DNA of 18,174 bases, taken from assembly GCA_963977445.1 (NCBI GenBank), contig CAXBPH010000133.1:1-18174 (forward strand), read 5' to 3'. This document shows positions 184 through 3,606 of this stretch, in pieces. The stretch comes from an uncultured bacterium. GTDB lineage: Bacteria > Hydrogenedentota > Hydrogenedentia > Hydrogenedentales > JAEUWI01. The first letter of the stretch is position 1, and every line of letters begins with the position of its first letter. The notes under the pieces are model-generated. The model was not told the origin of the DNA. It did no database searches and saw only the letters and a list, made by a program, of their open reading frames with translations. A program made the position numbers and the translations under genes.

Positions 184-834
184 TTAGTTAACTATGGCAA
201 TCTCGAAGACGGCGCGACGGTTAAGTGCGCGGTTTTCGCGGGTATCGTTGGGGACAGCAGGATCGCTCTCGCCCATGCTCTTCGTGGCGATACGACCGGC
301 ATCGATACCAGCAGCCTTCATGTAGCTGGCTACGGAATCGGCGCGACGCTGTCCAAGGCCCATGTTGTAGGCATCGGTACCAACGCTATCGGTGTGACCG
401 ACAACAACAACCGTGTCTTTACCGAACTTGTTCATCTCGGCGACCAGTCGGTCGATTTCGGCTTTGCCTTCGGGCTTCAGGTTGGTCTTGTCGAAGTCGA
501 ACAACACGTTGTTCAACACAACAGCCGTACGAGTTGGCTCTGCAACCGGCGTTGGGGCTGGCGGAGGCGTTACGGTGGGCTCTACTACCATGGGCTTTTC
601 CCATGCATGGTAGACGATACCGCGGTTACCCCAAAGTTCGCCGTCATCCGCGTTGGATGCTGGCTCGGTAGGCCACCACCAGTAGCCGGAGCGTCCCTTG
701 GTGTCCATCGTTGGTTCGGGGGTGGCGCCGGTATTGCCCCACCAGGACATGTCGTCCCACATTTTTGCGGCGTCTGCTGTACCACCCATTCCACAAAGGG
801 CGGCAATCAGAGCCAAAGCGATAATTCGTTTCAT
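184..834 (-). CDS. OmpA/MotB/Pal-type peptidoglycan-binding domain protein with signal peptide and Trp-rich N-terminal region
   Basis: OmpA C-terminal motifs NVLFDFDK, VVGHTDSVG, YNMGLGQRRADSV and NRALNRR; Pro/Thr linker; signal peptide MKRIIALALIAALCGMGGTADA. Start moved to ATG 834, with AAGGAG 10 nt upstream. Confidence 0.92.
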   Translation of the reverse strand: MKRIIALALIAALCGMGGTADAAKMWDDMSWWGNTGATPEPTMDTKGRSGYWWWPTEPASNADDGELWGNRGIVYHAWEKPMVVEPTVTPPPAPTPVAEPTRTAVVLNNVLFDFDKTNLKPEGKAEIDRLVAEMNKFGKDTVVVVGHTDSVGTDAYNMGLGQRRADSVASYMKAAGIDAGRIATKSMGESDPAVPNDTRENRALNRRAVFEIAIVN

Positions 835-1129: not shown

Positions 1130-1552
1130 TCATACGGCCTCCCTCAACCTGCCCTGGAGCGTGGTAAGTGCCTGGGCAATGGTGGGATTGTCGGTTTTGT
1201 CGATCAGTTTGCGCAACTTGGGTATGGCGCCACCAACCTTTTTACCACCGCGAACGGTGCCAAAGAGGTGACGACTCACCGTTGACTGGGTCAACTGGAG
1301 GATGACCGCAATGTCCTCCTGGGTCTTCCCGTAGTAATAATAGAGCTTGACGACTTCCCGTTGCCGTGCCGTCAGGCATCCATCGATAAAATCATTGACG
1401 GAAGGGCGAACTTCTTCGTAGAAGTTCTTCATGGCATAGCGCCGTTCCCGGTCGTCTTCCGATTCGTAGTAAAGCGCTTGAGTCGCTGGAACCCGGTCCA
1501 AGGTGGCAAACTCGGTGGGGATCTCCCAAAAATCTGGATTATAACTGGCCAT
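1130..1552 (-). CDS. Sigma70 region-4-like helix-turn-helix protein (no region 2); putative transcriptional regulator
   Basis: LTARQREVVKLYYYYGKTQEDIAVILQLTQSTVSRHL...AIPKLRK matches the sigma-70 region 4 HTH pattern. The start is either ATG 1552 (MASYNPDFWE) or ATG 1603 as in the ORF track. Confidence 0.8.
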   Translation of the reverse strand: MASYNPDFWEIPTEFATLDRVPATQALYYESEDDRERRYAMKNFYEEVRPSVNDFIDGCLTARQREVVKLYYYYGKTQEDIAVILQLTQSTVSRHLFGTVRGGKKVGGAIPKLRKLIDKTDNPTIAQALTTLQGRLREAV

Positions 1553-1749: not shown

Positions 1750-1785
1750 AAAAAAAAAGCCGCAGACTCGTTGGGAGCCTGCGGC
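1750..1785 (-). terminator. Intrinsic terminator in the 5' leader (attenuator) upstream of the sigma-4 gene
   Basis: - strand GCCGCAGGCTC-CCAAC-GAGTCTGCGGC (11 bp including one G-U) followed by U9. No long gene lies upstream on this strand, only a short leader ORF. Confidence 0.88.
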
Positions 1786-1816
1786 GTAGGTTGCTGTATG
1801 GATTTCAGAGAAATCG

Positions 1817-1936
1817 TTAACTCATACCCACTACCTCAGGCGTGGCGTAACCAAATACGCCGGCGTGCCACACGCATACGAGGGATCGCATCGTGGTGCA
1901 TTGAATGGCGGATTTATTGGCTACGGTTGAAATCAT
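1817..1936 (-). CDS. Putative attenuator leader peptide, 39 aa (MISTVANKSAIQCTTMRSLVCVWHAGVFGYATPEVVGMS)
   Basis: Translated by hand. AGAGGA lies 10 nt before ATG 1936. It sits between a promoter and a terminator, and its last codons form the antiterminator 5' arm. Confidence 0.6.
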   Translation of the reverse strand: MISTVANKSAIQCTTMRSLVCVWHAGVFGYATPEVVGMS

Positions 1937-1969
1937 GGATAGACATTCCTCTGCGGTTAATGTGCGATT

Positions 1970-2006
1970 ACGGTATCACAATCGGAAAATCGTTGCAAGG
2001 ATTTTC
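1970..2006 (-). promoter_or_regulatory. sigma70 promoter (extended -10) with palindromic operator over the -35 box
   Basis: TTGCAA (1998-1993), 17-nt spacer, TGa-TACCGT (-10 at 1975-1970). Palindrome GAAAATCgTTGCAAgGATTTTC at 1985-2006. Confidence 0.6.
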
Positions 2007-2228
2007 GACTTCACTTCGACGTGTTGAGATGCTCTTACACCCCGATATGCGCACTTTTGGAAACGACCAATAAACAATTTATTTCGCCTATCCGCCCACA
2101 AAGCACGTACAATTTTGTACGAATTCTGTACACGTCTGGTGATATGCACAATATTGAACACCATTGTCTCGTCGGATTTATACACCTAAACCGTTACAGA
2201 CAGTGGCCTTAGGCCACTACGCCATCTA

Positions 2229-2244: not shown

Positions 2245-2466
2245 TAAATAAGACGTATTCGGAAGAGAGTGGCCCTATCGGGCCATGTGGTTACCGGGGG
2301 CGGTTCGAATTTATGGTGTGAAATTCAGGTGTTAACCGGAGGTACCCCCTTGAGTGTTTTTAGTCCGTCCCCTTCTATATATCGAGCATCCTGCTCCTAT
2401 TCATTGCCCTCCGCACCTGAAAACAAGCTTCCAACCCGTGCATCTGATAGTGCCCACCGGAATTCT

Positions 2467-3606
2467 ATGAATATCGTTCCACATCCTGAGGAAACATCAA
2501 GCGCGTTTAATTTTAATACCCACCCAAAGATTCTCATCGTAGATGACGAGAATGGTCCCCGTCAGTCCCTTCGGATGGTGCTCAAGGAAGAGTTTGACGT
2601 CCGCCTTGCAACGGGGGTGGATGATGCACTCGACCAACTTGCCCAGGAGCAGGTGGATCTCATCGTAACGGACATCCGCATGCCCCACAAGACCGGAATG
2701 GATTTGTTGCGGGAGGTGCGGGGACTCTACCCCGACATCGAAATCATCATTCTGACGGGCTATGGCGAACTGGATACGGCGATGACGGCCATTGAATACG
2801 GTGCCTTTGCCTATCTGGAAAAACCTTTCGACCACGATAAAATGATGGAAAAGGTCCATGCCTGCATGGATAAGCGTCGCCGCGATCAGGATCGCAAAGC
2901 CCTCGAATCGTTGGCCATGGAAGCGAATCGCTTCGAAACACTGGGCCGCTTAATTTCAGGTACCATGCACGATTTAGGCACCCCCCTCTCGGTACTCGGC
3001 ACCCACCTGGAAATGCTGATTGCCGACCCCACGCCCGCAAGTTTTGAAAAGCGTCTTGGTACGATGGAATCACAGGTGCGCCACTGCACCGAGCTGGTCC
3101 GCTCGACCATGAATTTCCTCCGACACAGCCCCAACGAGCTGACGCCCTTCGATATTAATTCCGCCGTACAAGTCTGTCTCGAAGTGGCTCAACCGCTCCT
3201 TGGTCGCCAGTGTATTGACATGCACATTGACCTGAGCCCGAACATTTCGATTTGTGTCGGTGACTTTGTCCTCGTTCGCCAAGCCCTCCTCAACTTAATT
3301 TACAATGCCTGTCAAGCAATGGAAGCCCAGCGGAAGCCCCGGGAGCTGCATATTAAGACCGGCACCGAGGATGGTTGTCTTGTCCTGACAATCGAAGATA
3401 CGGGTCCGGGCATCCCTCTGGAAAGTCGTCAGCGAATCTTTCACACCCTCTACAGCACGAAGGGCAAGAAAGGCACGGGCCTCGGACTCAGCGTGGTGAA
3501 GAATGTTATGAAGCAGCACGGCGGGAGTGTGAGTCTGGAGCAGGAAGAAGGCCGCGGTGCACGCTTCAAGCTGACCTTCCCTCCCCGCCGCCAGGCGACT
3601 GAATAA
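2467..3606 (+). CDS. Hybrid response regulator / histidine kinase (REC-HisKA-HATPase_c), cytoplasmic
   Basis: REC: KILIVDDE, IVTDIRMP, ILTGYG, YLEKPF. H-box TMHDLGTPL, N-box LLNLIYNACQAM, G1 DTGPGI, G2 GTGLGL. ATG 2467 is preferred over the low-complexity extension from 2269. Confidence 0.92.
   Translation: MNIVPHPEETSSAFNFNTHPKILIVDDENGPRQSLRMVLKEEFDVRLATGVDDALDQLAQEQVDLIVTDIRMPHKTGMDLLREVRGLYPDIEIIILTGYGELDTAMTAIEYGAFAYLEKPFDHDKMMEKVHACMDKRRRDQDRKALESLAMEANRFETLGRLISGTMHDLGTPLSVLGTHLEMLIADPTPASFEKRLGTMESQVRHCTELVRSTMNFLRHSPNELTPFDINSAVQVCLEVAQPLLGRQCIDMHIDLSPNISICVGDFVLVRQALLNLIYNACQAMEAQRKPRELHIKTGTEDGCLVLTIEDTGPGIPLESRQRIFHTLYSTKGKKGTGLGLSVVKNVMKQHGGSVSLEQEEGRGARFKLTFPPRRQATE

Follow-up and report, generated by a model that had tools for sequence, protein, structure and literature searches.

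The locus described here raises the question of how a small regulatory gene is switched on in an uncultured bacterium of the phylum Ca. Hydrogenedentota, and which signal its leader perceives. The window, by which we mean the whole analyzed stretch of 18,174 nucleotides, carries on its minus strand a short upstream open reading frame (uORF1) and an intrinsic terminator ahead of a gene for a protein with a sigma-4 domain only. According to our analysis, this leader is very probably a ribosome-dependent attenuator, phylum-wide in its distribution. We assign a probability of about 60% to the complete interpretation, namely that it is a ribosome-dependent transcription attenuator of the sigma-4-only gene and senses general translation stress.

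All parts of the leader lie on the minus strand. The candidate sigma-70-type promoter (1970-1998), recognized from the sequence, consists of the -35 element TTGCAA (1998-1993), a 17-nt spacer ending in TG-n, and an extended -10 element, TGnTACCGT, at 1978-1970 (hexamer TACCGT, 1975-1970). It is followed by the RBS of uORF1, GAGGAA (1946-1951; anti-SD duplex of -6.0 kcal/mol), by the 39 codons of uORF1 (1817-1936), delimited by the ORF list and by conservation in homologues, and by an intrinsic terminator (1750-1785) with an 11-pair stem (1785-1759) and nine U (1758-1750), supported by sequence and covariation. The 5' strand of the putative antiterminator comprises the last uORF1 codons (1823-1841, core CCTGAGG; folding, pairing, and covariation), and its 3' strand (1777-1800; folding and pairing) overlaps the 5' arm of the terminator (CCGCAGG). 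The promoter, the RBS, the 39-aa ORF, and the 11-pair terminator with its nine U had been described in a first-pass annotation of the sequence, and all of them were found in place. Two further parts were overlooked there: a second ORF (uORF2, 1694-1539) that overlaps the start of the regulator gene, and a conserved box upstream of the promoter (2057-2046).

A sigma-70-like promoter was found no more than 150 nt upstream of uORF1 in 41 of 54 homologous loci; a simple promoter scan of the window did not pick out the uORF1 promoter TTGCAA-17-TGnTACCGT. The leader (1965-1750) folds at -72.2 kcal/mol (z = -4.32), which none of 200 shuffles equaled. No Rfam family reached the gathering score in the window, where four sub-threshold matches had E values of 0.28-5.1, and blastn and tblastn searches of the same genome revealed no second copy of the leader. 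Searched as DNA, the leader matched its own genus alone (7 of 21 genomes), and a genome-wide scan for further attenuators recovered neither of two known positives. The uORF-antiterminator-terminator layout itself is conserved across Ca. Hydrogenedentota.

This conservation was established on 82 homologous loci, of which 60 were unique with a full start and 51 of those were at least 50% identical. Defined as an SD-led frame of 30-70 codons ending 20-40 nt before the terminator, uORF1 was present in 48 of 50 loci, as compared with 4.6% of dinucleotide shuffles. Since these limits were chosen after the data had been seen and five uORFs were re-picked by hand, the test was repeated on held-out metagenome loci, 15 of 80 of which were admitted, each with a full start, no less than 520 nt of upstream sequence, and 49-85% identity. 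The terminator was found in 13 of these 15 and uORF1 in all 13 of the loci with a terminator. The first-pass annotation had tied its reading to conservation of the uORF, which these counts bear out.

The length of uORF1 (30-66 aa) and the position of its stop, 23-38 nt ahead of the terminator (n = 54), are conserved, whereas the peptide sequence is variable. In 11 non-independent pairs, changes in uORF1 were spread over the three codon positions as 68/64/66, as compared with 60/30/250 in the regulator; of the codon changes in uORF1, 25 were synonymous and 105 non-synonymous. This even distribution indicates that the uORF1 peptide is not under selection. The alignment contained no conserved nascent-peptide motif of the arrest-peptide type (ErmCL, TnaC, SecM), and no cluster of codons for one amino acid was present in uORF1.

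The terminator and the antiterminator core were far better preserved than the peptide. In 50 of 51 loci we found a terminator whose arm is of the GCCGCAGG type (the remaining locus had too little upstream DNA, and one terminator was placed by hand). Among 42 of the 49 leaders, seven near-duplicates having been left out, the terminator had 44 cells with double changes, and none of 500 shuffles had as many. The duplex between the last 42 nt of uORF1 and the terminator's loop plus 5' arm had an energy of -28.2 kcal/mol (n = 49), as compared with -21.3 kcal/mol for non-cognate partners, -18.6 for shuffled ones, and -15.0 for the first 42 nt of uORF1; the duplex reached p <= 0.05 in 40 of 49 loci. 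The leader's own partner ranked first in 9 and among the top 3 in 21 of 32 lineage representatives, with about 3 expected by chance for the top 3, and the core lay 17-27 nt before the end of the uORF1 stop in 40 of 41 scored loci. In a fixed register, five core pairs were kept in 32-38 of 42 leaders and a sixth in 18 of 42. Because the outer part of the pairing shifts register, covariation of the antiterminator in the fixed one was moderate: three measures gave 5, 3, and 6 of 500, and two further ones gave 378 and 130 of 500. Conservation of the antiterminator, another expectation of the first-pass annotation, thus finds support in cognate pairing stronger than the controls and in lineage-matched partners.

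In the window, when the nascent RNA extends to the terminator loop, the last uORF1 codons are predicted to pair with the terminator 5' arm with a probability of 0.86. The antiterminator had been drawn around a small apical GATTTC/GAAATC hairpin; the pairing is essentially as described, but the apical hairpin is not conserved, and homologues have an A-rich linker in its place.

Folding of nascent RNA in 49 leaders gave a median sequestration of the terminator 5' arm of 0.79 without a ribosome and of 0.62-0.83 for a P site placed 13-23 codons ahead of the last uORF1 codon, as opposed to 0.00-0.11 for one placed 0-10 codons ahead of it; with the uORF1 stop in the A site, 31% of the loci were still above 0.5. 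A ribosome within the last ~10 codons of uORF1 would cover the 5' strand of the antiterminator, and the terminator would form; with a ribosome at least 13 codons upstream, or with none, the antiterminator would form first. For RNA polymerase to read into the regulator gene, uORF1 would have to be translated slowly, with an early stall, or not at all. No switch was seen when the complete RNA was folded at equilibrium with ribosome masks: the terminator won in every ribosome state (median 1.0), with a preference of 13.9 kcal/mol (median) and of 8.3 kcal/mol in the window. Therefore, the switch must be kinetic, and the folding pattern predicts a kinetic attenuator that gives read-through once translation falls behind or does not take place.

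The dominance of the terminator at equilibrium would also suit a different arrangement, in which uORF1 and the terminator form a stand-alone small-protein or sRNA gene and expression of the regulator depends on leakage or on a different promoter. We consider this highly improbable. Not one of the 54 loci had a sigma-70-like promoter between the terminator and the regulator, in a scan that covered sigma-70-like promoters only and in that respect leaves room for such an arrangement. An independent promoter behind the terminator, of which the first-pass annotation had said that it would overturn its reading, was thus absent as far as promoters of this type are concerned. Moreover, the lack of amino-acid selection on uORF1 and the lineage-matched antiterminator are at odds with a stand-alone gene, as is the fact that the uORF-terminator unit keeps company with the regulator while the upstream genes vary among homologues. 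Taken with the conserved parts and the mutually exclusive pairings, these results support the proposal of a ribosome-dependent attenuator before a sigma-4-only protein.

Another reading keeps the switch and replaces its driver: an RNA-binding protein or a metabolite would act in a riboswitch-like manner, and the uORFs would merely tune basal read-through. Its attraction is that the terminator and the antiterminator core are far better conserved than the peptide and that most leaders contain a further hairpin within uORF1. It sits poorly with the fixed placement of the uORF1 stop before the terminator and of the antiterminator core before that stop; no conserved aptamer-like sequence was found beyond the two cores, and the leader has no Rfam family. 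We regard it as improbable.

If the leader is a ribosome-dependent attenuator, the next question is what slows the ribosome. Tuning of the same attenuator to tryptophan, by way of a single Trp codon in each uORF, initially looked strong, as in-frame Trp codons occurred in 22 of 23 uORF1 lineages (13.2 expected) and in 20 of 21 uORF2 lineages (9.9 expected) of the first set. Furthermore, in Mycobacterium smegmatis a single Trp codon of the whiB7 leader mediates induction by Trp shortage (10.1101/2023.06.02.543512). The excess was not replicated in the held-out loci (uORF1, 7 of 13 vs. 6.2 expected; uORF2, 7 of 11 vs. 6.3), Lys and Met were likewise enriched in uORF1 (z = 3.4 each), three Latescibacterota leaders lack Trp, and the uORFs have no run of Trp codons. 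Trp sensing was dropped after the failure in the held-out set and now appears to us a poor candidate. Specificity for one class of ribosome-targeting antibiotics, or for a small ligand that would stall the ribosome at a motif of the nascent peptide, is also unlikely. A box found before a MATE efflux gene (see below) points in this direction, as do the precedents of armZ (PMC12057347) and vmlR (PMC9226507). Against it stand the absence from uORF1 of a conserved peptide motif and of codon selection, and the near-chance frequency of R/K-X-R/K (15 of 23 vs. 12.3 expected); in addition, the antiterminator is predicted to form on naked RNA, so that an anti-antiterminator, as in vmlR, would not be needed.

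As no residue is selected and the Trp excess was not replicated, a general slowdown sensor is favored. By exclusion and by analogy, general translation slowdown is our best inference for the signal: any slowing of the ribosome, through antibiotics, amino-acid starvation, or lost coupling, would serve, as in whiB7.

Behind the attenuator lies uORF2 (1539-1708, with the RBS at 1708-1703, ATG at 1694, 51 aa, and the stop at 1539; sequence and conservation), an SD-led frame in the -1 register that spans the regulator start. Such an ORF was present in 45 of 47 loci, three loci with a short spacer having been left out, as compared with 2.9 expected; the other two frames had one such locus each, and 11 of 12 held-out loci had it as well. 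In the window uORF2 extends 14 nt beyond the regulator start codon; across loci it starts 109-223 nt upstream and ends 14-89 nt within the regulator gene. The RBS of the regulator was more closed than in shuffles in just 11 of 48 loci. This long, variable overlap and the open RBS fit occlusion better than re-initiation. We therefore suggest, less firmly than for the attenuator itself, that uORF2 may be a second lock: its ribosomes would cross the open RBS of the regulator and damp initiation until translation slows, the sign of this effect being presumed. Two other explanations for uORF2 were rejected. A +1 frameshift fusion of uORF2 with the regulator is not favored, as in 11 of 49 loci the frame of the regulator stays open for no more than 2-9 codons ahead of its start and most loci have a separate SD for the regulator. 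An RBS-hiding hairpin unwound by uORF2 ribosomes is unsupported in Hydrogenedentota, given the few closed RBSs.

The regulator (1130-1552, minus strand) has 140 aa and a sigma-70 region-4 HTH without region 2, as judged by Pfam, NCBIfam, a structure model, and Foldseek. Pfam assigned its ORF to sigma-70 region 4 (E = 2.5e-11) and to other HTH models; no Pfam match to region 2 was found in the protein, which thus does not qualify as a sigma-70 factor in the sense of region 2 plus region 4, and PF04542 had no match on contig C133. The top profile matches were mostly 110-190 aa long. The model (pLDDT 80.9) shows a long helix, the HTH, a two-strand hairpin, and two C-terminal helices; its best Foldseek structural neighbors are sigma-4 domains, and none in PDB or BFVD had E <= 0.001. 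In the Atlas the protein sits in an unnamed sigma-4 cluster of 616 members. Elsewhere in the same genome, two short frames of 101 and 140 aa (C252:9995-10195 and C101:3918-4100) match region 2, whereas the matches listed to region-4 type 2 include none next to them; these frames may be broken sigma genes or region-2-only partners.

A profile search detected the regulator gene in 86 of 135 Hydrogenedentota genomes, nearly always as a single copy; in two families it found none (0 of 23 and 0 of 10 genomes). According to the sequence records, close homologues are mostly from Ca. Hydrogenedentota and more distant ones from Latescibacterota, Poribacteria, and Actinomycetota. Downstream of the regulator lies an OmpA-family gene and not a biosynthetic operon. 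This gene (184-834, minus strand) directly follows the regulator and has its own TTGACA-17-type promoter near 956-928; an OmpA-family gene was found no more than 1.1 kb downstream of the regulator in 32 of 49 loci. The divergent response-regulator/histidine-kinase gene (2269-3606, plus strand) is probably unrelated, since the upstream neighbors vary among homologues.

The box AAAGTRYGCATA (2046-2057, minus strand in the window) was found ahead of the promoter in 47 of 51 loci and in 14 of 15 held-out ones, and a related box, AAAAGTGCATCC, occurs in Latescibacterota and some Poribacteria. It lies 49-130 nt before the -10 element, with distances clustering near 50, 59, 70, and 80 nt (n = 40); the periodicity gave R = 0.45 at a period of 10 (nominal p = 0.0003, nine periods tried) and R = 0.29 at 10.5. 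The box is likely a protein-binding site and is possibly bound by the regulator itself. A palindrome, GTACA-N4-TGTAC, at 2107-2120, upstream of the box, may be the site of another regulator; similar GTWCA-N4-TGWAC copies occur in several homologous loci (L002, L024, L025, and L027), and the genome has 8 exact matches.

A large regulon defined by the exact box was discarded, as matches beyond the regulator's own site were near the level of the reversed-pattern control. Among 20 inspected second box sites, two precede one MATE-family gene, which was chosen for testing after these two matches. A score of 12 bits or more was reached by 6 of the 29 MATE promoters in a first set, as compared with 0.8% of 5063 own-genome ORFs. 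In fresh genomes the box core preceded MATE in 14 of 26 genomes with the regulator and in 0 of 23 without it, a contrast that amounts to at most two independent losses, since the regulator-free genomes form two clades. In the window's own genome the MATE gene has no strong box (0.5 bits), and the best box sites precede a sulfite reductase gene and a gene that we take, from its sequence, to be ilvB-like. As a box target, hflX was rejected despite scores of at least 12 in 6 of 29 upstream regions; in the genus of the window the match ends in TAA just before a terminator hairpin and is thus likely the end of the upstream gene. The weakest link of the proposed mechanism is that the regulator might bind the upstream box and control its own promoter as well as, in many lineages, the MATE efflux gene.

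The position of the box at other promoters is varied. At sulfite reductase promoters of one family (f1; L133-L137) it lies one base before a TTGACT -35 element in four genomes, just where a class II activator would bind. At MATE promoters (L185-L190 and L312-L328) it ends 16 nt before an extended -10 element, i.e., at the -35 position, in five loci and lies at 28-30 nt in five further loci; these positions would fit a stand-alone sigma-4 protein that replaces or flanks -35 recognition. A box-like sequence was also seen upstream of the tmRNA gene in two genomes (L085, and contig C324 of the window's genome).

Leaders before the more distant homologues are built differently. Three Latescibacterota loci (L072, L073, and L082) have a uORF of 20-21 codons followed by a hairpin with a U tract, and five Poribacteria loci and one similar locus have a uORF of 26-27 codons and a hairpin over the SD of the regulator; in nine more distant metagenome loci no SD-led ATG uORF was found at the threshold used. 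Leader control thus recurs in different builds and is not universal. In the Latescibacterota loci the 3' part of the uORF can pair with its own SD, a switch that differs from that of Hydrogenedentota.

These observations suggest, very tentatively and with the odds against it, a convergent WhiB7-like translation-stress regulon in Hydrogenedentota and their relatives, in which a stand-alone sigma-4 protein, locked twice through ribosomes by the transcription attenuator and the overlapping -1 uORF, would bind a box with helical phasing both at its own promoter and at the MATE gene, and the leader would have been rebuilt as a terminator type in Latescibacterota and as an RBS-hairpin type in Poribacteria. 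If this is right, an uncultured phylum reached the whiB7 logic, in which slowdown of the ribosome switches on a small transcription factor and efflux, independently and with a different protein and an overlapping-uORF lock. For the unnamed sigma-4-only family, the analysis provides a lead to function and a candidate binding box. The leader is short, appears to be sigma-70-driven, and has an intrinsic terminator, which makes it amenable to reporters in Escherichia coli or Bacillus subtilis.

We found no paper on this leader in the open literature, most subscription journals lying outside the coverage of the search. The first-pass annotation knew of no described system with this combination, a claim that does not hold, as whiB7/wblC and PA5471.1-armZ already work in this manner. 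In whiB7/wblC of Actinomycetota a mixed-codon uORF, a terminator, and an antiterminator likewise precede a small transcription factor (10.1101/2023.06.02.543512), and read-through likewise occurs when uORF translation is poor or absent, which in our case is a folding prediction (10.1101/2023.06.02.543512; PMC7157823). The whiB7 uORF reacts to antibiotics as well as to shortage of many amino acids, and expression rises when its start codon is lost (10.1101/2023.06.02.543512). WhiB7 and WblC feed back on their own promoter and have resistance and efflux targets (10.1101/2023.06.02.543512; PMC7157823). In contrast, the protein described here carries an HTH of sigma-70 region 4 and matches no WhiB model in Pfam, a second uORF overlaps its start, and the phylum is different; unlike WblC, which binds 3 nt upstream of the -35 element (PMC7157823), the box lies 49-130 nt before the -10 element.

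PA5471.1-armZ of Pseudomonas aeruginosa also has a leader-peptide attenuator before a regulatory protein; ribosome-targeting antibiotics act via the leader peptide, and the product activates an efflux pump (PMC12057347). That pump is MexXY, and ArmZ acts as an anti-repressor, whereas here a DNA-binding protein is predicted, MATE is a candidate target, and there are two uORFs. The leader belongs to neither the whiB7/wblC nor the armZ system, the protein being unrelated. The leaders of vmlR in Bacillus subtilis and toiL in E. coli share uORF-based sensing of translation inhibitors (PMC9226507; PMC12121999); that of vmlR stacks several layers (PMC9226507), and toiL responds to five antibiotic classes (PMC12121999). 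They differ in that vmlR depends on an anti-antiterminator and regulates an ABCF protein, not a sigma-4-only one (PMC9226507), and in that toiL uses RBS occlusion and Rho and is not reported to control a sigma-4-only protein (PMC12121999).

The amino-acid biosynthetic attenuators of the trp, leu, and his type have the same geometry, but the present leader lacks a run of control codons and is not followed by a biosynthetic gene. A separate leader in the window's genome (contig C99), with a Leu-rich ORF (7 Leu in 32 codons), a terminator, and a CCTGAGG-type core, looks like a classical amino-acid attenuator in Hydrogenedentota; the gene behind it is presumably leuA-like. Orf7 of Tn916 is sigma-4-like. 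In orf12-tet(M)-orf7 of that element a leader-ORF attenuator leads, by an indirect route, to expression of the regulator Orf7, as here a leader ORF would govern a regulator; unlike here, faster translation leads to read-through, the control of orf7 is indirect, and the element is mobile (PMC7288454). In Sinorhizobium meliloti, uORFs that overlap the main start either couple to it or repress it, and coupling went with overlaps of at most 13 nt (PMC13285730); uORF2, in contrast, starts 109-223 nt upstream, ends 14-89 nt inside the gene, and lies behind an attenuator. The class of mechanism is thus already well known, and what this locus adds to it is the overlapping uORF2 together with the MATE-linked box.
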